From the IMG/VR virus record IMGVR_UViG_3300035654_000005: a stretch of DNA of 20,000 nucleotides. One strand, given 5' to 3'. This DNA comes from an uncultured virus (IMG/VR IMGVR_UViG_3300035654_000005) (taxonomy: Duplodnaviria; Heunggongvirae; Uroviricota; Caudoviricetes). The first letter of the stretch is position 1. Every line of letters begins with the position of its first letter. A model generated the notes under the pieces. That model saw only the letters and a program-made list of their open reading frames with translations. It was not told the origin of the DNA and did not search any database. Made by a program: the position numbers and the translations under genes. Positions 1 to 19,984 of the stretch are shown here, piece by piece.

Positions 1-664
1 TGCGGTGTTCCCCACCTTTGTCGGGAATCCAGTAATTAAGCCATTTGTCATTCTTTGATTTGCCTCCTCTGTGCAGATAGTACACAAAAAAGATGTTATT
101 ATTTATATTGCAAAATAGCATAGGCAACATGAAGAAGTAGAACGTATATTGCACAGAAAAATACAATCCTATGCTCAATATTGTTAATAATATCCTGTAG
201 TAATAAGTATCTACGAACTGTGCTAATTTATCATCAACGTAAACCTTCGATTGATCAATATTAAACTGATCATATTGGTACATAGTTAGTGGATATAATC
301 CAAATATCAAATAGAACTTATTGAAGAATTTTGGACTATGAGGATCTTTTTCCGAATCTACGAATCTGTGGTGGATCGTGTGATACTTAGCGAAGAAGCT
401 TGGACGACCAATATTGGATATTAGCATCGAAATGCATACTAGGACCTTATACATTCCACTAGGTTTGATGATATGATGACTGATCCACATATGCAAACCC
501 ACGTATAGTCCCAACCGTTCGACGATTTTAAATATCAACACTGATACAACAATCAGCAGTGGGTCATGATACCATACCAATAGGAACAAACACAAAGTTA
601 AACTACACATAATAGCTACGTGTAGTGTTGCATACCACTTGTCTTTGAATTGGATATCAGACAT
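1..664 (-). CDS. Membrane fatty acid desaturase-like protein (delta-9/OLE1-like family), paralogue 2; 3' end truncated by window edge
   Basis: Not in the ORF track. Manual translation from ATG 664 stays open to position 1: MSDIQFKDKW...GLHMWISH...KYHTIHHRFVDSEKDPHSPK...YLHRGG...GGEHR. It has His boxes HxxxxH and HxxHH, the D-PHSP motif and hydrophobic segments. It starts 2 nt after the stop of the upstream desaturase. Confidence 0.85.
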   Translation of the reverse strand, partial: MSDIQFKDKWYATLHVAIMCSLTLCLFLLVWYHDPLLIVVSVLIFKIVERLGLYVGLHMWISHHIIKPSGMYKVLVCISMLISNIGRPSFFAKYHTIHHRFVDSEKDPHSPKFFNKFYLIFGLYPLTMYQYDQFNIDQSKVYVDDKLAQFVDTYYYRILLTILSIGLYFSVQYTFYFFMLPMLFCNINNNIFFVYYLHRGGKSKNDKWLNYWIPDKGGEHR

Positions 665-666
665 TA

Positions 667-1428
667 TTAACGTTTTCTGATCAGATTGATGAACCACTTA
701 TTAGCATCCCATTCAAACCACTTCTCAGCGTTTGAGATTGCTCCTGGATTGTTGTGGTGATTATTGTGGTAAGCTTCACCGTGAAACAATAAGCCTGACC
801 ACAAGTTATTGTGGCTGTCGTCGCCAGTTACGTGATTTGTATAATTGAAAGGGCTTTTCTTGTGATACGGATACACGCTGAAGAACACCCCGATTAATGT
901 ATATAACACACCTACAAAATACACTGCCAACACTTGCCACGAGATACACAACATAACTAACATGGATAATACAGCAACCTCCAGATAATACTTGTGTAGT
1001 ATTCTCAGGGTTTTATCTCGAATTAAATCTTTGCTGTTTAGCATAGCTGAATCACAGGATGATAGATCTACGGTTAAGAAGAATAATTTAAAAGCTGAAT
1101 ACTTGGCTGGACTATGTGGATCATCAGCATCATCGGAATGTTGATGATGGGTACGATGCATGCTTGCCCATGAAATTGTACTACCTACTAAAATCAAGTT
1201 GCCTATGAAACACCAGAATATGTGAGCCAGTTTGCTAAGATTGAATGTTCGGTGAGTTATGTACCGATGAACGATAATGCTGCCAGCAGTCCAGTGCAAC
1301 ATCCACCCAAATATACAACCGTACGCGATTAGATCATAACGTTGTTGAGTTATTAAAAATACTAGAGTGGCTATTATTATAGCGTATATAAGTTTAAGTG
1401 CAGTTAGTGTAAAGCTAGTAGGGAACAT
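667..1428 (-). CDS. Membrane fatty acid desaturase (delta-9 acyl-CoA/acyl-lipid type), paralogue 1
   Basis: Three His boxes HRYITH, HRTHH and HNNHH, plus SDDADDPHSP, GEAYHNNHH and the C-terminal WFEWD motif. Likely start is ATG 1428 (MFPTSF), 2 nt after the upstream stop; the ORF track extends it to 1485. Confidence 0.92.
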   Translation of the reverse strand: MFPTSFTLTALKLIYAIIIATLVFLITQQRYDLIAYGCIFGWMLHWTAGSIIVHRYITHRTFNLSKLAHIFWCFIGNLILVGSTISWASMHRTHHQHSDDADDPHSPAKYSAFKLFFLTVDLSSCDSAMLNSKDLIRDKTLRILHKYYLEVAVLSMLVMLCISWQVLAVYFVGVLYTLIGVFFSVYPYHKKSPFNYTNHVTGDDSHNNLWSGLLFHGEAYHNNHHNNPGAISNAEKWFEWDANKWFINLIRKR

Positions 1429-1430
1429 AG

Positions 1431-1958
1431 TTATGCCTTTGGATTCAATCTTAGTCTGGTTGACGTTACTAATGCGGCTATACAATTTTCCGGCACAATG
1501 ACGTCTACCGCTGTTCTAATTTTAGTGAATTGTAGTGTAGATAGCATCTTTTCGCCGATGTGCACTTTACCTGATACGCATATCAACGTGGTATCGAATT
1601 CAGTCTCACCCACGTGGTGGGAACCAGTATTCAGGATAGACACACAAATGCTGGATTCAGAAGGAAGAGGGTTGAAATTGAGCACAGCTGCATGCTCTGC
1701 CTGTGTAGTGATAGTGACGTATGTGTGGAGTAGGTCAGATGAATCTACCAAATCACCTTGCTTAGCTGTCATCTCCAACACAACATCAGTGCCTTGTGGA
1801 TCCTTGGTATACACTCGATGCGCTTCACCGCTTACAACGTAGCTCCACTGAGCAAAATGCCCTTCGTCTCTAAGATGTAGCTGCAATGTTTCGTATGGGC
1901 TAGAAAAAGCCGCACAATACACAAACGATCCCGCATTTATACTATTGTTTAATATCAT
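1431..1958 (-). CDS. Hypothetical protein, probable (bi)cupin / HutD-pirin-like beta-barrel
   Basis: Two cupin-like strand motifs, QWSYVVSGEAH and LICVSGKVHIG. ATG 1958 is preferred over GTG 1976, which abuts the CATAAATA box. Confidence 0.5.
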   Translation of the reverse strand: MILNNSINAGSFVYCAAFSSPYETLQLHLRDEGHFAQWSYVVSGEAHRVYTKDPQGTDVVLEMTAKQGDLVDSSDLLHTYVTITTQAEHAAVLNFNPLPSESSICVSILNTGSHHVGETEFDTTLICVSGKVHIGEKMLSTLQFTKIRTAVDVIVPENCIAALVTSTRLRLNPKA

Positions 1959-3118: not shown

Positions 3119-5164
3119 ATGGCAATTTTTCGCTTCACAGACCCAGATAAAGCCCCTATAATTGTAGGTGATTTAACTACAAACGGACCAGCTCTACCTA
3201 GTGCAAATCTTCCACTGCATGCTTTAGCTGTATCTGCAAATACTTCGTTGATTTTAGTGGGTAAGGGAGTTAAAGAGTACGGTGAATTGATCCAAGACGG
3301 TATATTAAGTCTGCTTGAAAACTTTGCCAACGGCACAGAACCTGCATACCCAGTAGAAGGTCAACTTTGGTATAATAACAACGATGGTGTTCTGAATCTA
3401 CGTGTGTCATCTGCATGGCAGCAAGTTGCACTCAACGGTAACTTTACAATCCCGTTCGACCTAGACGGTCAACGCATCACTAACCTAGCACTCCCTACGC
3501 AAGTATCAGATGCGGCAACCAAAGGATTTGTTGATGATAATTTCTTAAATCTTGCTGGTGGTGTGATGTCTGGTGCTATTACATTAACTCTGTCTCCAAT
3601 AGCAAATACTGACGCTACCAACAAACAGTATGTTGATTCTAGTATTATCACAGCAATCGGTTCAAGTGGAGCAGGTTCAAACGCATATACAGACGCTCAG
3701 GTAGCACTTAAAGTGTCAAAAGCTGGAGACACTATTACTGGTCCAATCGTAATCGACACGACTAGTTTGAATTTACAAACAAGTGCACTTAACATAATCA
3801 ATAGCTCTCTAGTAGCTTCCGGATCATCTGTTATTGATTTTGGATTAGTGCGTGTAACCAATGTCGGAACTCCTACCAATCCAAGCGATGCTGCAACAAA
3901 AGCATTTGTTGATGCCCGCGCTGACGCAGGTACAGTTCAAGATTCGACATTCGATTCATCGACAGGAATATTGACACTTCAACACATAGATGGTTCAGTG
4001 GTAGAGTTGGATAATACTCCACTAGCTCCATACTTCCATCAACACATTCTGTCTGATGTACTGCTTCCACTAGTTGCAAAAAATAAATCATATATTGACG
4101 ATGGATACGTATTATCAAACTTTCAGATTCCGTCTTTTATATCGTTAGATACGGGATGGTACGTCTTAGATGCAGCTATTCAAAAGTTAACACAAAAGAA
4201 CGATCGTTACTTGGTAGCAGGCAATGGCACTACAACAATTACTCTACCATTTGTATATCCAGTATCACTCGATAAATTGTCTGTGTATGAGGATGGTATA
4301 AAACTATATCGAAATAGCAGAGGTCGCGCTGTGATTAATACTGCTACGTCTATCAGCGGCGTAGACAACACTCCGTTATCCAACAGTACATATTATTACA
4401 ACGCTACTATTGATGGTGTATTGTACGCCGATCAAGCAGTTAACCTAACAAATGCCAATACTTCTGTCCCTAAATATTATGAATTAATTCGTGCGTTGGC
4501 ATCATCATTTACAGATAGTGGATATGCATTAGTTACGCTATCATCACCCATCACTGGCTCATCACCTACTGGGCTGATACCAGGTAATACATACGGTGCC
4601 AGCCTCGTGATTGATGGCACCTCTTATACTGTATCCATATTAGGTAGCACTGCCCAAACGTATGATGATCTAAATTACCAACTATCATCACAAACGGGTT
4701 TAGCATTAGCGCCTAGTACATCAGGGTCTACGTTAAGGTTAACTGCCCGTTCCCGTGGGGTAGAATCATCCGTCACATCTGTCGTAGACGCAGTTGGTAT
4801 TTCGCCGTATCCATTATTCGCTAGTCTTACCAACTACGTTTCTGTTGGTTCGTACACACCGGGCGTAACGAGAGCAGTTGTAACCTTCGACAATGGATAT
4901 ATTAATGTACTATCACCAGGAGTCGGTGCAACTTCCGATGTTGTATTTACTGACCCTTCAACAGGAACAAGTTTACTAACAGCGTTATCAGCCACCTCAT
5001 CACATACAGTGGGAACGAGCATATATGCATATAACGAAACCGGCATTCCGCTTAGATATAGCAATACTGTGACCTTCAGTACTAATACGAATGTTGGTAA
5101 AATGTATGAGTTTACTGTTCAATCATTCGGTTTGAGAACAGATACGTTGGGCAACATAGTTTAA
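3119..5164 (+). CDS. Virion structural protein, tail fibre / baseplate-attached fibre (681 aa)
   Basis: N-terminal attachment motif SLILVGKG..YG...LLENFANGTEPAYPVEGQLWY. Three P....DA.(T/N)K.(F/Y)VD trimer-neck repeats, KVSKAGDTITG fibre motif and a Ser/Thr-rich beta C-terminus. Confidence 0.8.
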   Translation: MAIFRFTDPDKAPIIVGDLTTNGPALPSANLPLHALAVSANTSLILVGKGVKEYGELIQDGILSLLENFANGTEPAYPVEGQLWYNNNDGVLNLRVSSAWQQVALNGNFTIPFDLDGQRITNLALPTQVSDAATKGFVDDNFLNLAGGVMSGAITLTLSPIANTDATNKQYVDSSIITAIGSSGAGSNAYTDAQVALKVSKAGDTITGPIVIDTTSLNLQTSALNIINSSLVASGSSVIDFGLVRVTNVGTPTNPSDAATKAFVDARADAGTVQDSTFDSSTGILTLQHIDGSVVELDNTPLAPYFHQHILSDVLLPLVAKNKSYIDDGYVLSNFQIPSFISLDTGWYVLDAAIQKLTQKNDRYLVAGNGTTTITLPFVYPVSLDKLSVYEDGIKLYRNSRGRAVINTATSISGVDNTPLSNSTYYYNATIDGVLYADQAVNLTNANTSVPKYYELIRALASSFTDSGYALVTLSSPITGSSPTGLIPGNTYGASLVIDGTSYTVSILGSTAQTYDDLNYQLSSQTGLALAPSTSGSTLRLTARSRGVESSVTSVVDAVGISPYPLFASLTNYVSVGSYTPGVTRAVVTFDNGYINVLSPGVGATSDVVFTDPSTGTSLLTALSATSSHTVGTSIYAYNETGIPLRYSNTVTFSTNTNVGKMYEFTVQSFGLRTDTLGNIV

Positions 5165-8575: not shown

Positions 8576-8605
8576 TTGACATTTATATCAGGCATCGTGT
8601 ATAGT
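8576..8605 (+). promoter_or_regulatory. Sigma70-like promoter TTGACA-N18-TATAGT, probably giving a leaderless transcript
   Basis: Perfect -35 at 8576-8581 and -10 at 8600-8605. ATG 8612 is only 6 nt downstream and there is no SD. Confidence 0.65.
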
Positions 8606-8611
8606 TAACAC

Positions 8612-9190
8612 ATGCCTGATATTGACCTAGACTTTCCTACTGATTTTCAACCAAACACCTTGTTTCCAAAGGCTGTTACTGCGTCTATGGTTAAGAACAA
8701 TAGATTATCTAAACATCCGTGTGGTGTTTACTTTCAAAACATGCCTGTAGATTACGAATCTAACCTTGCAGCAATTCCATACGATAAAGCTCCAGAATAT
8801 GGCTTCTTTAAGCTTGATTTTCTGCACCTATCCATACTCGATGATATCCAGAGTAAAAGTGAACTCCGTAAGTTGATAGCGACGGATCCACAGTGGGATA
8901 TATTGTGGAATCCAACCCATACTCACAAACTGTTTCAACTACACAGACAATTTGCTGTACTCGATACGGTGAGACCAACGTCGGTTATCGAGCTTGCTGA
9001 TTGCATTGCGTTGATTAGACCGAATAAGAAACATCTTATAACGGAATACTGCAACGATAAATATAAGACTAGACCAAAACTGTACCGTTCAGGCACAGAA
9101 GATAAGTCATCGTTTAAGCGCTCCCATGCTATTGCATACGCGCTGACAGTTGTCATACAACTGCATCTTATATCACAGGGAAAATTGTAA
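8612..9190 (+). CDS. Miniature DnaE-like (DNA polymerase III alpha, family C) catalytic-core protein, 192 aa
   Basis: DnaE motifs in collinear order: PDIDLDF, SKHPCGVY, GFFKLDFLHL, LFQL, PTSVIELADCIALIRP, SFKRSHAIAYA. Confidence 0.85.
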   Translation: MPDIDLDFPTDFQPNTLFPKAVTASMVKNNRLSKHPCGVYFQNMPVDYESNLAAIPYDKAPEYGFFKLDFLHLSILDDIQSKSELRKLIATDPQWDILWNPTHTHKLFQLHRQFAVLDTVRPTSVIELADCIALIRPNKKHLITEYCNDKYKTRPKLYRSGTEDKSSFKRSHAIAYALTVVIQLHLISQGKL

Positions 9191-9555
9191 TGAGAGTAGA
9201 TAGCGTTAAACTAAATTCACATCAGAAAACCGTGTTGGCTATTATTGCTGACGCTCCAACTTCTAAGGTTGCAGCAGGTGATATTTCTAACAATCCGAAC
9301 CTGAACCAAGGTGCTTTATTGTTGCAGAAGTTGGGCATAATCAACTATAGCACAACCGATGCAAGTATTACGGATGCAGGCGCTCAGATATCTCAGGAAG
9401 AAAATATTACGGATGAAACAGGCACACTTACCACGAATGGTACAATGTTCTTGAAAATGAATGCAGCTGGTGGTAAACCTCAACCTACGGAAGAAGCACC
9501 ACCAGTAGTTGGTGAATCTTTATTACATCAGCTTGTTAAAATACTAGGTAACTGA
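9190..9555 (+). CDS. Hypothetical protein, possible winged-helix fold; translationally coupled to mini-DnaE
   Basis: TAATG stop/start overlap at 9188-9192. LNSHQKTVL...LLQKLGII...SITDAG resembles a wHTH helix-wing pattern. Confidence 0.5.
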   Translation: MRVDSVKLNSHQKTVLAIIADAPTSKVAAGDISNNPNLNQGALLLQKLGIINYSTTDASITDAGAQISQEENITDETGTLTTNGTMFLKMNAAGGKPQPTEEAPPVVGESLLHQLVKILGN

Positions 9556-9962
9556 TTTGCAGGAATTGGTTTACGTCGTCTGCGTTTAACGCTTTTAACC
9601 TCACTCATCTCATACAACGGTACGGGTCCAATAACACGTGATATAAACTCAACGTTTAGTGATCTGTACAGCTTGGATGTATCTTTAGTCATACCTAGTT
9701 TCGAAAACTCAATCGAAATTGGATAATTGGCTGCATTCTCTTTATACCAATCAATCGCAGTAGCGATTACCTCTTCTTCATCAACGCCCTCAGGACCACA
9801 CACGTCGAGAACAAATGCGTGAATGTAGTCAGAAGTCGCATTATCTACGATTGCTAACAAGGGTTGTTTTCTATATTGAATTAAGGTAATGAACGGATAG
9901 CCAACATAATTTTCAGGATGTGGTTCAATTACTAGAGGAATAGTGGGTTTTCTGGCTGCCAT
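9528..9962 (-). CDS. Hypothetical phage protein with basic C-terminus
   Basis: 144-aa ORF (YPFITLIQY...IVDN...VKRRRRK) preceded by a TATAAATA box. Its 3' end overlaps the convergent gene by 28 nt. Confidence 0.7.
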   Translation of the reverse strand: MAARKPTIPLVIEPHPENYVGYPFITLIQYRKQPLLAIVDNATSDYIHAFVLDVCGPEGVDEEEVIATAIDWYKENAANYPISIEFSKLGMTKDTSKLYRSLNVEFISRVIGPVPLYEMSEVKSVKRRRRKPIPANQLPSILTS

Positions 9963-12708: not shown

Positions 12709-13470
12709 ATGACACAGTATTACGTATATCATCTGATAAACTCAATAGATGGACAACCGTTTTATATAGGTAAAGGTACAGGATCTCGAATGTATCAACA
12801 TTTACGAGAAGCTGAACGAACCACGTATACACACCGGCCTGTCCACAATAAAATAAGATCCATCGTATCTAAGGGTGGAGAAGTAGAATATAAAAAGTTT
12901 GAATGCCAAACCGAAGATGAGGCGTTTGCAGAAGAGAAACGGTACATAGCTTTATTCGGAAGGCGTGATTTAGGCTTAGGACCACTGATGAATTTATCTG
13001 ATGGTGGAGAAGGTGCTCAACGGAATAGAGATAGTGTTGAACGAACAGCCACATTTCACAGAGGGCGCAAACGAACAGATGAATCTAAGGTAGTTATGAA
13101 GGCAGCACAAATTAAAAGTGCAGCCGAAAAGAGATTAAAATATGGTGGTAAAGCAGCTTCCGAAGAAACTATCGCTTTGATGAGACAACAGAGNNNNNNN
13201 NNNCAACAGAGAACTGGAAAACAATGGAGCGACAATGCGCGATCCACTATTAGAAACAAACCTACAGCAACACCCGTGATGGTTTACTACAAGGACACAG
13301 GAACCTTTGTAGGTGAGTGGGAATCAATGGCTTTGTGTGCTAAAGAATTGACGTTGGATGTATCAGCAATTTGGAAGATTTTAAGTGGGAGGCTATCTAA
13401 AGCACCGGATGGAACAATGAGACCTTACAAATCGACAAAAGGATACACTTTCAAATACAAGAATCAATAA
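12709..13470 (+). CDS. Free-standing GIY-YIG (LEM-3-like) homing endonuclease with NUMOD3- and NUMOD1-like DNA-binding modules
   Basis: YYVYHL...PFYIGKGTGSR, EDEAFAEEKRYI, LMNLSDGGEG, HRGRKRTDESK, and C-terminal GEWESMALCAKEL...KSTKGYTFKY. It contains a 10-N scaffold gap. Confidence 0.88.
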   Translation: MTQYYVYHLINSIDGQPFYIGKGTGSRMYQHLREAERTTYTHRPVHNKIRSIVSKGGEVEYKKFECQTEDEAFAEEKRYIALFGRRDLGLGPLMNLSDGGEGAQRNRDSVERTATFHRGRKRTDESKVVMKAAQIKSAAEKRLKYGGKAASEETIALMRQQXXXXQQRTGKQWSDNARSTIRNKPTATPVMVYYKDTGTFVGEWESMALCAKELTLDVSAIWKILSGRLSKAPDGTMRPYKSTKGYTFKYKNQ

Positions 13471-13499
13471 AAAAGCCGCTATATAGCGGCTTTTTTATT
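13466..13499. terminator. Bidirectional intrinsic terminator
   Basis: Perfect 34-bp palindrome AATAAAAAAGCCGCTAT|ATAGCGGCTTTTTTATT between the convergent endonuclease and folE2 stops, with a T-tract on both strands. Confidence 0.9.
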
Positions 13500-14545
13500 T
13501 AGCGCAATCCGTTTGGAATGCCTTTAGCTGTCACAGCTGTCGCGCTCCAGGGATGTAAGCTCTCGAGATGCTCAGTAACAATGCTAAAGTCCAATACTTT
13601 ACCTTGATCAAATAACTCATCAACACCTTCGTACAACAAACGAATTGCATCTTCAGTGAATAGTAAGTTAGAACCATTTAGTTCAGCAAACGCTTGTTCA
13701 TCACGACGCTTACAAATCACAACAACTTCTGTTGGTACTTGACGACGAGCAATTTCAACAATGTCTTCAATGTACACTGGATCTTTAGGATTGAACTCAA
13801 CGGTGATCTTACCAATACTGCGTTGTGAGTGACCGTTAGCCGCCTTGTTACGTTTTAGACGAGCATCTAGTGCTAATTCAAACGAACATGGACATGTAGA
13901 AGAGTACACATAATCAACTGTTAAGTAGAACTTGTATGCATCACCATGCTTTTGGCCTTCTAGTACACAATCATAGAATATGTGGCCTAATGCTTTTTCG
14001 TGACTAAGAGCAACGCCATCGACGATCTTGAATACTTCTGGATCGGACTCTTTCCACTCATCACCAGCCTTACGCTCAGGTAATTCTTGACGTGTACGCA
14101 ACGCAGCTTGTACCCATGGATATTTAAACTTCATCTTGCAGTAAATGCTGTGTGAATCTTGTTTAGCTTGTAACGCATCTAAGATGTTAGTCAAGCCTTC
14201 AATTGAAAGGTGGTTAGCTAACTGTTCGTGCATTACAATCGGGAAACGACTTAGGTTAAGACCTTTTGAGTTGATATTGTCGAGTGAGCCGTACAGCGAC
14301 ACACTAGCGTGTAACTTTTCTACAGAACCATCACGACGGATGAAATTAACAGGTAAATCAACACCATTAACACCAACCTTGTTAATCTTAATGCGTTTAC
14401 CTGGAATGAATGGCTCAACTTGTGGATCTGGTAAGTCTTCATCGTTTGGATAGAAGTCTGCATCGTATTTGAAGTCTAGCTGAGGCATGTGCTCAGAATA
14501 GTCATTATGTCTGAACTCAGTTGGTTGAGTATACTTAATAGTCAT
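13499..14545 (-). CDS. folE2: GTP cyclohydrolase I, type IB (FolE2)
   Basis: LPDPQ, KGLNLSRF, YSSTCPCSFEL, HSQRS, KRRDEQAFAELNGSNLLFTEDAIR and HLESLH motifs; SD AAGGA. Confidence 0.92.
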   Translation of the reverse strand: MTIKYTQPTEFRHNDYSEHMPQLDFKYDADFYPNDEDLPDPQVEPFIPGKRIKINKVGVNGVDLPVNFIRRDGSVEKLHASVSLYGSLDNINSKGLNLSRFPIVMHEQLANHLSIEGLTNILDALQAKQDSHSIYCKMKFKYPWVQAALRTRQELPERKAGDEWKESDPEVFKIVDGVALSHEKALGHIFYDCVLEGQKHGDAYKFYLTVDYVYSSTCPCSFELALDARLKRNKAANGHSQRSIGKITVEFNPKDPVYIEDIVEIARRQVPTEVVVICKRRDEQAFAELNGSNLLFTEDAIRLLYEGVDELFDQGKVLDFSIVTEHLESLHPWSATAVTAKGIPNGLR

Positions 14546-14565
14546 TGTAGTCCTTATTATTGTTA

Positions 14566-15135
14566 TTATTTTAGTGTATTTGTATATTGTAACACAAGTT
14601 GTACGCGTTCGTCAATATGTGGTGTTGATATTTTGTTGAAATATTTAGCAGTACTGGTAAATTCACGTGTATATTCGTACATCACGTTATCTACCATACG
14701 GCTATAATGTTGGTTAACACCACGCACACCATCTTCAACAGGTTTAAAATGTCCTGCTTCTAAGTAGAATACTCCAGCATACTGATCTTGAGCATGGCTA
14801 CATTTGAAGTAGTATTCGTCTAACCAGTCGCTATACTCATTGTCCTTACCTAATGCAACTAGTGCGTAAGTGAATAAGTCAGCAAATGTGCGTTCAGTGA
14901 AGAATATATCATTTGATTCAACTGCCTCTTTCTCGTCTGCCATCTTACGAGCTAGAATTTCGTCTTGAAATTTAATCGTGAGATCGCGATTGTTGTTCAC
15001 TTCGGATAGTGTTACGTTCCAGTCAGTTAAGATAGAACGTGAAGTTTTGCGGGATACAACTGGAAAGTGATGGCCTAAGACGTCAAGCAGTGTGGATTTA
15101 CCTGTACCTTGACTACCAGCAATAGAGATTAGCAT
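14566..15135 (-). CDS. P-loop nucleotide/nucleoside kinase-like protein (AAA_28 / NadR-Ttd14 type)
   Basis: ISIAGSQGTGKSTLL Walker A, FFTERTFADLFTY, and EDGVR lid motif. Confidence 0.8.
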   Translation of the reverse strand: MLISIAGSQGTGKSTLLDVLGHHFPVVSRKTSRSILTDWNVTLSEVNNNRDLTIKFQDEILARKMADEKEAVESNDIFFTERTFADLFTYALVALGKDNEYSDWLDEYYFKCSHAQDQYAGVFYLEAGHFKPVEDGVRGVNQHYSRMVDNVMYEYTREFTSTAKYFNKISTPHIDERVQLVLQYTNTLK

Positions 15136-15160
15136 AATGGTCCTTATTTTAATAAGATGT

Positions 15161-15190
15161 ATTATACATTCATCTGGACGGATTAGTCAA
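15161..15190 (-). promoter_or_regulatory. Sigma70-like promoter TTGACT-N18-TATAAT for kinase-folE2
   Basis: Minus strand -35 at 15190-15185 (inside the 3' end of the GT gene) and a perfect -10 at 15166-15161. SD AAGGA precedes ATG 15135. Confidence 0.65.
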
Positions 15191-16396
15191 CTTCTCAATG
15201 AGCTGAGTGTACTGATTAACTGATTGCTGAACAGTGCATCGTTCAGATATGTAGCGCCTAGCTTCATCCCGTATAGTAGTTAGAGTAGGTAGATTGCTCA
15301 AAGCTAAATCTACAGCATCTGCAATATCGTTAGGTGAGAAGAAATCAACCAACAACCCATTTTGATCGTGTGTAATTACCTCCCGCACAGGTGGTGTATC
15401 AGATCCAATCACCAAACAACCTGCAGCCATTGCTTCTAACATAGACCAAGATAGCACAAATGGTATAGTTAAGTAAACGTGAGCTGATGATATTTGAAGA
15501 ACCTGCAAATATTCTTGATATGGCAATTTACCTAANNNNNNNNNNTTACCTAAGAAATGTACACGATTAGTATCCATATCCACTTCTTTAAGGATCTGTT
15601 CTTTATAATTGGTACCTGGTGATTGCTGACTATAGCTAACATCATTACCACCCACTATCAAAATATGACAATCAGGTTGACGTTTACATATCAGCTCAAC
15701 AGCTCTCATAAATTGGTGAAATCCACGGTATGGTTCGAGGTTTCTAGCCACATACGTGATTACTTTATGTTTATTCGATAGCACTAAACCATTTGGTAAA
15801 GTCACCGTTGCATTGGGATTGGGTTTAACAGAGCTACTAACCCCTTCATGGATAACTGATATTTTTGATTGATATTCAGAAGGATATAGAGATTTTTGCC
15901 AATTGGTAGGACTTACAGCAGCATCACACCCATCGATACTCAAGAAGTTAATAATGTTTTTAGTTCGGATGCGTAATAAGTCATCAACCTTATTGGGATA
16001 CTCAGGATCAAATCCAGTATCTGCACCCATAGCGTGATAAAAGAACTCCATGTAACTAATAAGTTTAGTATCAGGAAATACGTCTTTAACGTACAGAGTT
16101 TCACCCCAACCGGAATGTCCAATCACTACATCAGGTACAAATCCCCGTTGTTTGAGACCTTGCATAGCACGGGCGACCGCTTGACCATTTAGAATGGATT
16201 GCTCAGTATCTATCAGATAGTGGTGAATACCCTTAGTTGCGCATCGAGCTGGCTGATATATACCATTTCGTATATTGGCTAATCCGTTGGCTTGGGGCTG
16301 TGATAGTGATACAACTTGGTGGCTTGCTTCTACTAGATGTGAGGCTATATGAGTAAATTGACCAGGAAAGTTTTGATGCAGAAACAGAACACGCAT
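15170..16396 (-). CDS. GT-B glycosyltransferase, family 4 (Glyco_trans_4_3-type N-terminus)
   Basis: MRVLFLHQNFPGQF, PDVVIGHSGWGETLY, ITYVARNLEPYRGFHQFM, HVYLTIPFVLSWSMLEAMAAGC and EVITHDQNGLLVDFF. It contains a 10-N gap. Confidence 0.92.
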   Translation of the reverse strand: MRVLFLHQNFPGQFTHIASHLVEASHQVVSLSQPQANGLANIRNGIYQPARCATKGIHHYLIDTEQSILNGQAVARAMQGLKQRGFVPDVVIGHSGWGETLYVKDVFPDTKLISYMEFFYHAMGADTGFDPEYPNKVDDLLRIRTKNIINFLSIDGCDAAVSPTNWQKSLYPSEYQSKISVIHEGVSSSVKPNPNATVTLPNGLVLSNKHKVITYVARNLEPYRGFHQFMRAVELICKRQPDCHILIVGGNDVSYSQQSPGTNYKEQILKEVDMDTNRVHFLGXXXXLGKLPYQEYLQVLQISSAHVYLTIPFVLSWSMLEAMAAGCLVIGSDTPPVREVITHDQNGLLVDFFSPNDIADAVDLALSNLPTLTTIRDEARRYISERCTVQQSVNQYTQLIEKLTNPSR

Positions 16397-16401
16397 GTAA
16401 C

Positions 16402-16893
16402 TTACAAATCGTTTTTACATGGATATGCTTCGATTAACGCCTTAGTAGCAATAATTAATGCACCGTTTGACGGATCATACTGGTCAGCAATTGCTTCAAC
16501 TTCAGGAATATGCTCAAGAGTCCATAAATCGATAGACTCTAACAGTTGTTTATCAGTAATTGTCGGCCCAACACACCACAAAGATTTGATGGGTGTATGT
16601 TTGTTAGCAGGTTGGTCTGAAGCATAGAGGTTGTTTAGCTCGATTGTCATTAAGTGACCGGCTGAATAGCCTGCAATGCGCCCGAGACAGTTCGATTTGG
16701 CGATGTAATACGCATCTGGTGATGTTATATCAACGCCAGAACACATCGTGAGGTATCGAGTAGTGATGTCGTGAGGAACAGGAACTGGATTCTTCGGTCT
16801 CTGCACATATATTGTGGTTAGTAACACAGATAATGCACACACTACCACTATACTAATCAATACATATAATGGTTTTGCATATGGGTCAGTCAT
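16402..16893 (-). CDS. Rap1a/Tai-like immunity protein, N-terminal membrane anchor
   Basis: Four-Cys pattern LTMC...CLGRIAG...WCVG...KQL...KALIEAYPC, with hydrophobic residues ~8-30. Confidence 0.65.
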   Translation of the reverse strand: MTDPYAKPLYVLISIVVVCALSVLLTTIYVQRPKNPVPVPHDITTRYLTMCSGVDITSPDAYYIAKSNCLGRIAGYSAGHLMTIELNNLYASDQPANKHTPIKSLWCVGPTITDKQLLESIDLWTLEHIPEVEAIADQYDPSNGALIIATKALIEAYPCKNDL

Positions 16894-17367
16894 TTAAACC
16901 TCACAAACTATAAAGTCATACATAGGATAAGCAGCAGCATAACTCTCAACGATAGGTTTAATGTCGAGATCCCAGCTCAATCCACCCAATCCACATCCAA
17001 TTTTAGGTAGATATATAGATACAGGAGGATTGGGTTCACTATCTGCCACTAGACAAGCAGTTAACATGGCAGTATCGATAGCATTTTTATCGGCATATAC
17101 TTTACCGTCACGCCCGTACCACTCTTGAGTGATTGAGTTAAGTATCACAACAGGCAAGTCTGGCACATCGTATATAGAGCAATTACCCATCAACTCAGAT
17201 TTAATCGCTTTCTTATCACACATTTGCTTATATCCAGCAAATACACCAGGCCATTTGTCACGAATTGCCTTCGCAACACCAGAACCCATCACACCTTGAG
17301 CATTGCATCCTTGCAGGATGATGCCCTTAGTGACAGTGGTTATGTCTTTTTGCTGGTATAATAACAT
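16894..17367 (-). CDS. Macrodomain protein (ADP-ribose binding/hydrolase)
   Basis: KDIT...ILQGCNAQGVMGSGVAKAIRDKWP and LPKIGCGLGGLSW motifs. Confidence 0.9.
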   Translation of the reverse strand: MLLYQQKDITTVTKGIILQGCNAQGVMGSGVAKAIRDKWPGVFAGYKQMCDKKAIKSELMGNCSIYDVPDLPVVILNSITQEWYGRDGKVYADKNAIDTAMLTACLVADSEPNPPVSIYLPKIGCGLGGLSWDLDIKPIVESYAAAYPMYDFIVCEV

Positions 17368-18812: not shown

Positions 18813-19289
18813 TTACATCGGATTTTTAGGAGGGCATGGATAGGCAGCCGCTAAATACGAATAAGTGGTAATGGAAGCTGGTAGAGCTTGTCTCTGTGGC
18901 AACGTCATATTAGCTGTTAGGAAGTGAACAAAATCGACTATGACGTTCTGTTGGCTGAGTTCAGGAATACATACCGCACCAAATGTGGTGTCAGCAATTT
19001 CGCGATGAAATATACCATTCATTTTAATGGTGTGCATATCTGTGCCAGCTATAATACCACTAACATATGAGAGACATTGAAATCTAGCCGATACTATGGT
19101 CCAAGCACGATCAACTGATTTGGCATCTTTAACATTGACATCATCAGGTGTGATCACTTCATTTACAGCAGAGCAGAAATGTCGAACGTCCTCACCAGTT
19201 GCAGCACTATCGAAGAGGTTTGTGTGATCTTCTGCGTGAGCTGTATTCAAAATTAGTAAAAGTGAGAATACAGCAGCTATAAGACGCAT
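18813..19289 (-). CDS. Rap1a/Tai-like immunity protein with Sec signal peptide
   Basis: Signal peptide MRLIAAVFSLLLILNTAHA, then TGEDVRHFC...QCLSYVSGI...VCIP...Q..V..FL...PA...YLAAAYPC. Confidence 0.75.
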   Translation of the reverse strand: MRLIAAVFSLLLILNTAHAEDHTNLFDSAATGEDVRHFCSAVNEVITPDDVNVKDAKSVDRAWTIVSARFQCLSYVSGIIAGTDMHTIKMNGIFHREIADTTFGAVCIPELSQQNVIVDFVHFLTANMTLPQRQALPASITTYSYLAAAYPCPPKNPM

Positions 19290-19387: not shown

Positions 19388-19984
19388 TTATACGGTGATG
19401 TTATTTGATGCTAGGATACGGCCAATTTTTGCTAGGCTGTCTTTCAATACGGCAGCTTCAACAGCAGCAGCTTGTTTGCTTTGTGTCAATACAGCAACTT
19501 GCGTCGCCATTGTAGCTTTTACGCGTTCTTCACGGATAGTAGCAAAACGCTCTAACATTACATCATTAATCGCTTGACCATTACGGAAACCTGCAGCTTG
19601 TAAGTCAGCCAACAGTGTTTTGCTAACAGCAGTCGTAGCAGGTGAAGTAGCAGTTGTAGCTGGGGTTTTAGTCACAGCAACTGGTTTAGCAATTGGTGAT
19701 GGGTTTACTGCAATCGGAGTAACATTGACAATTTTTTCCCAACGGATTGTTTTCAATGTTTGAGCTTGAATGTCGTATGCTTTCAAGAAGATACTACGAG
19801 GTTTGTTGATTTCAACAGAGCGTAGGCTATCTGGCAACACCTTTGCATTCAGTGTGCAGTTAATTGTACGCAATGTACCATCGTCTTTTTCAAATGTAAT
19901 AGTAACAGATTTGTTGGTTGCTAAGTCGTCTTGAATAGCTTTACGTGACTTAGGTGATGATAGGTTTAAAAATTTTTGTGACAT
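19388..19984 (-). CDS. WYL_2 / Sm-like SH3 beta-barrel protein with Thr/Ala/Pro linker and helical C-terminus
   Basis: VTITFEKDDGTLRTINCTLN...AYDIQAQTLKTIRWEKI; SD AAAGGA. Confidence 0.65.
   Translation of the reverse strand: MSQKFLNLSSPKSRKAIQDDLATNKSVTITFEKDDGTLRTINCTLNAKVLPDSLRSVEINKPRSIFLKAYDIQAQTLKTIRWEKIVNVTPIAVNPSPIAKPVAVTKTPATTATSPATTAVSKTLLADLQAAGFRNGQAINDVMLERFATIREERVKATMATQVAVLTQSKQAAAVEAAVLKDSLAKIGRILASNNITV

Follow-up and report, generated by a model that had tools for sequence, protein, structure and literature searches.

Iyer et al. 2021 (Viruses 13:63; PMC7824862) reported a 'minimal, split DNA polymerase III alpha' in the group 2.2 jumbo phages from sequence analysis. In the portion of that paper available, the mini-polymerase was suggested to cooperate with the family B enzyme or to act in repair, and the possibility was raised that the C-family polymerase survives here in its ancestral minimal state. 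The same portion does not mention fused single-chain forms. Furthermore, the available text of the Sharanji genome paper (PMC11895373) merely lists a 'DnaE' gene, and that of PMC7412058 deals with other polymerase subunits. No experimental work on the split mini-DnaE was found in searches of the literature on jumbo-phage DnaE/Pol III alpha, and among the papers returned the split was described by Iyer et al. 2021 alone. A first reading of the present DNA, made from the letters only (the sequence-only reading), had mentioned short DnaE-like ORFs in jumbo phages without a demonstrated function. This was correct, and the split had already been published in 2021, as seen in the accessible text of PMC7824862.

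The window analyzed in this study is a stretch of 20,000 nucleotides of a 130.7-kb contig from an uncultured virus (IMG/VR IMGVR_UViG_3300035654_000005). The features at the polymerase locus are listed below, where C-half stands for the C-terminal unit of the split polymerase and N-half, in the following text, for its N-terminal partner.

8576–8605, plus strand: candidate sigma-70-like promoter, TTGACA, 18 nt, TATAGT, 11/12 matches.
8585–8622, no strand assigned: perfect 11-nt inverted repeat ATATCAGGCAT / ATGCCTGATAT, arms at 8585–8595 and 8612–8622, 16 nt between them.
8612–9190, plus strand: gene for the C-half, 192 aa, of a split minimal DnaE-like polymerase; its key residues are D3, D5, D69, K67, R136-P137, H172, and Y176.
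9190–9555, plus strand: 121-aa gene, possibly winged-helix-like, with its start overlapping the C-half stop (TAATG).
9528–9962, minus strand: phrog_11637 gene, 144 aa, convergent, E 7.7e-18.

The ORF of 192 aa was intact. It started with MPDIDLDF, carried KLDFL at residues 67–71 with a spacing of 64 residues from D5 to D69, and contained FKRSHAIAYA at residues 168–177, 15 residues before the end of the protein. Its stop codon TAA (9188–9190) and the ATG of the ORF at 9190–9555 had one base in common. All of these features had been pointed out in the sequence-only reading, and all were present. The protein matched phrog_11778 of PHROGs ('DNA polymerase') with an E value of 1.4e-57, residues 3–190 being aligned with positions 8–194 of the 197 in the profile, and each of the 95 phage records matched (95/95) covered at least 80% of the query. 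A total of 419 homologues were found, and the representative search at E ≤ 0.001 gave 261 clusters at 50% identity. The Pfam finger domain was matched below threshold (E 0.0011, 18.8 bits, cut-off 22). A single-sequence phmmer search of the PDB returned chance dynein chains alone (E ≥ 0.36), and a profile was needed to reach the polymerases. With the family profile built from 101 homologues (alignment A1), all nine PDB matches were Pol III alpha chains, with E values from 3e-05 to 5.6e-04.

The family profile paired K67/D69 of the C-half with K553/D555 of E. coli DnaE, RP with R639-P640, and FKKSHAxAYA with residues 755–766. For the first two aspartates, the natural fusion P0234 was informative. 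Its DFDID segment aligned with D401-F-D403-V-D405 of E. coli, and therefore D3 corresponds to D401 and D5 to D403. The proposed equivalence of the three aspartates to D401/D403/D555 was thus borne out, by the profile for D69 and by the fusion for D3 and D5. The description of the protein as a minimal DnaE core was right as to the three catalytic aspartates and went too far as to the core, as the chain holds only the C-terminal half of the palm and a trimmed finger. Rather than a stand-alone core, the 192-aa ORF is the C-terminal unit of a split minimal Pol III alpha, the one that binds Mg2+ and the template. With the C-terminal unit of Iyer et al. 2021, represented by phrog_11778, it shares the length of about 190 aa, the motifs, the restriction to the metal- and template-binding half, the phage context, and a distant N-partner in relatives. 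The identity to the copies of isolate phages was at most 49%. In the window, an extra small gene stands between the C-half gene and that of phrog_11637, an arrangement shared with XacN1 and RAS14. The C-half gene is an ordinary, divergent member of the split family published in 2021 and adds no new architecture.

The structure of the C-half was predicted by AF2 with a pLDDT of 95.9 and a pTM of 0.87. When this model was searched with Foldseek, the best 18 matches were all C-family polymerases. In the VIA-align comparison, C-half residues 1–192 were superposed on E. coli DnaE 400–782 with a Z of 10.6 (185 aligned, 3.4 Å), on the enzyme from Thermus aquaticus (Taq) 461–840 with a Z of 10.8 (190 aligned, 3.1 Å), and on PolC 971–1297 with a Z of 10.4. 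The 16 C-family polymerase chains gave Z values of 6.9–10.8, and the best unrelated chain gave 2.7. Because of this difference, together with the phrog_11778 match (E 1.4e-57) and the 419 homologues, the resemblance to the C family is far beyond chance, and both the homology and the fold can be taken as shown.

The kinship and the losses can be seen when the C-half is set beside the bacterial enzymes. Bacterial DnaE/Pol III alpha (E. coli 2HNH, T. aquaticus 3E0D, and M. tuberculosis 5LEW) aligned across the full 192 aa with Z values of 10.2–10.8. The C-half shares with DnaE the Pol-beta-like palm strands, with equivalents of D401/D403/D555 and K553, and the finger motifs RPG and FNKSHSAAYA. 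However, the spacing between the second and third aspartates is 152 in E. coli and 64 in the C-half, which is without a thumb, and whose finger is shorter by about 83 residues between RPG and FNKSH. Moreover, the C-half has no PHP domain (no Pfam match to this domain in the ORF) and nothing past about residue 782, where DnaE has the regions for clamp and tau binding and the OB domain. The N-terminal half of the palm resides in another polypeptide, and there is no GRGS in the C-half chain, whose ORF begins at the DxD strand. PolC from Geobacillus kaustophilus (3F2B/3F2C) likewise shares the palm and finger core, with 189 residues aligned at Z values of 10.3–10.4. By contrast, it is a single chain of about 1400 aa that also has PHP and OB domains, clamp-binding parts, and an exonuclease inserted in the chain.

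About 190 of the 383 residues spanning E. coli DnaE 400–782 were missing from the C-half, the thumb and finger segments among them, and therefore the assembled enzyme may not hold primer-template DNA as DnaE does. The earlier statement that the thumb, PHP, clamp-binding, and OB parts and the upstream GS segment are all absent was in agreement with the fold alignment, which was confined to 400–782, with the lack of a Pfam PHP match, and with the aspartate spacing of 64 against 152.

The other palm half was found in related phages. A PF07733 search of the whole Atu_ph07, PBECO4, and XacN1 records gave exactly one ORF in each, matching profile positions of about 14–98 only. These N-half ORFs had 172–182 aa, were annotated as 'DNA polymerase' or 'DNA polymerase III alpha subunit', and were located three to four genes from a clamp-loader gene. 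The N-half of the isolate phages ended in ...EF(F/L)x, about 6 residues short of the point where the C-half starts with its DxD strand. All three isolate phages carrying the C-half (3/3) possessed the N-half. In addition, five genomes were rated 100% complete among the 80 IMG/VR loci kept from the N-half profile search, and all five contained exactly one C-half ORF (190–203 aa) and one N-half, at a distance of 5.7–19 kb from each other (5.7–9.5 kb in three). Both halves matched the same jumbo-phage groups in the phage collection, and GRGS was invariant in 40/40 aligned N-halves. The split and the co-occurrence of its two halves are thereby shown in these relatives. Residues of about 1–100 of the N-half (alignment A2) lie outside the Pfam match, and they showed the conserved motifs LWYDGD and WNIPxxYK and the invariant residues D15, G16, and K63.

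In the 20-kb window, no N-half was detected by hmmsearch, and the best tblastn match had an E of 0.43 and no GRGS. This match (3858–4085, minus strand) was rejected as a chance one; it lay antisense inside a larger ORF. If the window phage has an N-half, its gene would lie over 8.6 kb upstream or over 10.8 kb downstream of that for the C-half, given that the 20-kb window of the 130.7-kb contig was searched; otherwise it is absent. In the searches for the contig itself, the best identity was 39% in IMG/VR and 36% in the JGI metagenomes, and the phage collection gave no megablast match. The PHP domain (PF02811) was found in none of the five complete related genomes, whereas the control search found it in 14/14 cellular genomes. 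The family B polymerase (PF00136) was found in all five, and neither of the two was located in the 20-kb window. The sequence-only reading had suggested looking for separate PHP- or GS-motif fragments in the genome. A gene with GRGS exists in the relatives, but none lies in the 20-kb window, and PHP was found in 0/5 complete relatives.

The two halves also occur as one protein. In P0234 (375 aa) and P0242 (336 aa), an N-terminal extension corresponding to PF07733 positions 12–121, including GRGS, was followed by the full equivalent of the C-half. These are single polypeptides, with the GRGS half ahead of the C-half equivalent, as against the two genes of the split form. The GRGS of P0234 aligned with R362-G363-S364 of E. 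coli. Such fused forms were rare, with one sequence for P0234 and two for P0242, on contigs of at most 8 kb. The extra N-terminal domain of about 100 aa, which P0234 and the split N-halves have, was lacking in P0242. Another DnaE relative was observed on some metagenomic phage contigs. It was a PHP-less DnaE core with full PF07733 and finger domains, and it was encoded about 5 kb downstream of the C-half gene, as follows.

L057, 13256–14938: PHP-less DnaE core, 560 aa.
L062, 11168–12850: PHP-less DnaE core, 560 aa.
L050, 9100–10782: PHP-less DnaE core, 560 aa.
L063, 11413–12759: PHP-less DnaE core, 448 aa, cut by the contig end.

Different from the C-half, the 560-aa core is a single polypeptide, and it co-exists with the C-half gene on the same contigs. 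The records with both the C-half and the 560-aa core were 3–14% complete.

In cyanobacteria, DnaE is split by an intein, and the catalytic subunit comes from two distant genes. The mini-DnaE is likewise encoded by two distant genes, but it has no intein. A trans-splicing intein was considered and rejected, as intein halves would not fit at the junction and the C-half starts with M-(P)-D-I-D. The assembly of the two halves must therefore be non-covalent.

The complex of an XacN1-like N-half (A2) with the window C-half (A1) was predicted with an ipSAE of 0.89, compared with 0.11 for the best of three controls, a pass that may reflect the memory of the model for single-chain DnaE structures and that was obtained with an N-half from another phage lineage. 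Of 157 solved complexes, 116 attain the mark for a pass, and 2 of 215 mismatched pairs do so. The runs shared at least 97% of the contacts, and the partner pLDDT was at least 88. In the model, the GRGS segment (N-half residues 143–156) touches C-half residues 1–9, which form the DxD strand. Furthermore, the phage-specific N-terminal domain of the N-half packs on C-half residues 41–56, the conserved YFQxIPxD...AAIPY stretch. Among the three options of the sequence-only reading was a split polymerase, with the protein as one of its pieces and the rest supplied in trans. This is the option supported by the N-half gene of the relatives, the natural fusions, and the predicted complex.

The conservation of the C-half was then compared across its homologues. 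Among the matches listed, 117 of 120 homologues had lengths of 189–203 aa, and most began with M(P)DIDIDF. In 218 aligned homologues, the catalytic residues were retained as follows: D3 in 216, D5 in 217, D7 in 215, and K67 and D69 in all 218. The other residues were H35 in 216, G38 in 215, R136 in 215, P137 in 217, H172 in 214, and Y176 in 206. The pairwise dN/dS (Nei–Gojobori, 362 pairs from 79 unique genes, pairs taken with a dS between 0.05 and 1.5) had a median of 0.13 and a maximum of 0.55. On this comparison of sequences, the C-half gene is evidently maintained by strong purifying selection, and the conservation of its catalytic residues speaks for an active enzyme. A decaying fragment or pseudogene was rejected on the conserved lengths, the conserved catalytic residues, and the dN/dS of 0.13. 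The earlier argument for selection rather than decay therefore holds, with length conservation, D3/D5/D69 in 216/217/218 of the 218 homologues, and the low median dN/dS on its side.

The gene had also been credited with its own promoter. A sigma-70-like site with 11/12 matches does lie directly upstream, with 6 nt between the end of its −10 element and the ATG of the C-half gene. But the number of promoter-like sites in the region was not above that of shuffled sequences (4 found, shuffle mean 4.6), and the C-half promoter at 8576–8605 is thus rated as plausible. The −10 element lies between the arms of the inverted repeat at 8585–8622, and the start codon and the first codons fall within the 3′ arm. 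In the window, the 11-nt repeat occurred in these two exact copies only. The inverted repeat was not conserved in XacN1, RAS14, Atu_ph07, and PBECO4. It could be an operator, or a hairpin masking the start. With the −10 element ending 6 nt before the ATG, the C-half mRNA could be leaderless or nearly so.

The gene directly downstream was searched for homologues of its 121-aa product. They were found at the same position in XacN1 (E 1e-13) and RAS14 (E 2e-07), together with five metagenomic proteins. By phmmer, one of the 83 other loci (XacN1) had a homologue, and RAS14, which was examined separately, also has one. The 121-aa gene thus seems to occur only in the lineage of the window, XacN1, and RAS14. 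The protein had no Pfam family at E ≤ 1 and nothing at 0.9 or above in the Atlas. The AF2 model had a pLDDT of 54.8, with helices at 10–20, 29–34, and 36–47 and strands at 51–54 and 59–62. With this low-confidence model, the top rows of Foldseek were IscR/Rrf2, CymR, RPA32C, and LexA, at non-significant E values (≥ 0.9). The model weakly suggests a wHTH-like protein. A general coupling of the polymerase gene to a wHTH gene, as first proposed, was not found, as the homologue occurred in 1/83 other loci (plus RAS14) and the wHTH fold was only weakly indicated.

In contrast to the 121-aa gene, the phrog_11637 gene is the near-universal conserved neighbour of the C-half gene. Of 84 loci, 82 had it downstream on the opposite strand, at positions from a 29-nt overlap with the C-half gene to a distance of 901 nt. 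The other two loci lie close to a contig end, which is within 264 nt of the C-half gene in one and within 723 nt in the other. The pairing persisted down to about 30% C-half identity. Against the Atlas, phrog_11637 had scores of at most 0.88, with unnamed clusters and weak integrase-core rows. The protein has about 124–145 aa across the loci, and the 3′ ends often overlap the C-half gene by 3–29 nt.

Several other genes were observed in the window. The run at 13499–17367 (minus strand) encodes a GTP cyclohydrolase I of the FolE2 type (E 4.2e-50), a protein resembling dNMP/thymidylate kinases, a glycosyltransferase of the GT4 family (E 3.5e-64), and a macro-domain protein, and these matches together may point to nucleotide or DNA modification. 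A GIY-YIG homing-endonuclease-like ORF at 12709–13470 (phrog_314 E 2e-17; PF22945 E 1e-08) stands alone on the plus strand among minus-strand genes. Two adjoining ORFs at 2–1485 (minus strand) matched a fatty-acid desaturase (E 2.5e-06 and 1.8e-14). In addition, a match to the Rap1a immunity-protein family (PF18602, E 9.7e-08) at 18813–19289 (minus strand) adjoins a WYL_2-domain ORF at 19388–19984 (minus strand).

We therefore regard the ORF, with good confidence, as the C-terminal subunit of a two-gene, miniaturized C-family (DnaE-type) polymerase of the T4-like 'group 2.2' jumbo phages. The C-half would supply four palm beta-strands with the metal-binding D3, D5, and D69 and with K67 (K553 in E. 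coli), and also a shortened finger that retains the RP(G) and FK(K/R)SHAxAYA motifs. The other palm half, with the GRGS triphosphate-binding motif, would come from a separate protein of about 180 aa whose gene is located kilobases away. The split point would be the loop equivalent to E. coli residues of about 393–400. From these data, we infer that the two chains assemble into a heterodimer, joined non-covalently, and that they form one catalytically active Pol-beta-like nucleotidyltransferase site. Such an assembled enzyme would be without the PHP domain, the thumb, the clamp-binding region, and the OB domain, and the genomes that encode it have a family B replicase as well. The reaction is the least certain step. 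Short-patch, low-processivity DNA-templated synthesis, accessory to the family B enzyme, is somewhat favored.

A different reaction has to be considered for the same heterodimer. The halves may form an active Pol-beta-fold nucleotidyltransferase whose reaction is not ordinary templated DNA replication, such as primer hand-off or extension beside a primase, untemplated 3′ tailing, or lesion, modified-base, or nucleotide-signal synthesis, and the phrog_11637 protein could be a third component. The absence of the thumb, the clamp-binding region, the OB domain, and the PHP domain is consistent with this, and so are the family B replicase in 5/5 complete genomes and the closeness of the C-half gene to primase genes in PBECO4 and Atu_ph07. 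The phage-specific N-terminal domain of about 100 aa in the N-half, with its invariant D15/G16/K63 and its packing on the C-half in the model, also fits, as does the convergent phrog_11637 gene in 82/84 loci. However, this synteny may merely mark the boundary of a transcription unit. Moreover, the finger motifs RP and FKKSHAxAYA are retained, and they belong to the DNA-template-binding subdomain in the available text of Iyer et al. 2021 (PMC7824862), which argues for templated synthesis. Non-replicative chemistry of this kind is quite unlikely.

The possibility that the 192-aa protein acts alone as a minimal distributive nucleotidyltransferase was raised at the outset. The three catalytic aspartates and K67 are indeed present and conserved, and the single chain was modelled confidently. 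However, the C-half has neither the GRGS nor the N-terminal palm half that are found in every Pol III alpha and in both fusions. Its catalytic DxD strand is at the extreme N-terminus and is buried against the N-half in the model, and the N-half co-occurs in 8/8 complete genomes examined. Activity of the single chain is thus very improbable.

In DnaE, the surfaces for the clamp, tau, and epsilon lie within the PHP, thumb, and post-782 regions. A non-catalytic decoy or scaffold, mimicking part of DnaE to bind the host or phage replisome, had also been put forward and might agree with the loss of most DnaE domains and with some automatic annotations as membrane or hypothetical protein, but it can practically be dismissed, as a decoy does not need near-invariant metal-binding aspartates and K67 and as the PHP domain, the thumb, and everything after about residue 782, with those binding surfaces, are absent from the C-half.

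With about 370 residues in two chains, the polymerase favored here would be much smaller than any other known C-family polymerase-like catalytic module. This widespread module is under strong purifying selection, and the phages encoding it already have a family B replicase. It is possible, though we hold it unlikely, that the mini-DnaE is a specialized nucleotidyltransferase module rather than a second replicase, having lost every DNA-clamping part of DnaE, gained the N-half domain, and become linked with phrog_11637. If this is true, the module might carry out primer hand-off, untemplated or modified-base synthesis, or signalling. The function of the mini-DnaE, once shown, would define the minimal needs of C-family catalysis and an unrecognized step of jumbo-phage DNA metabolism.
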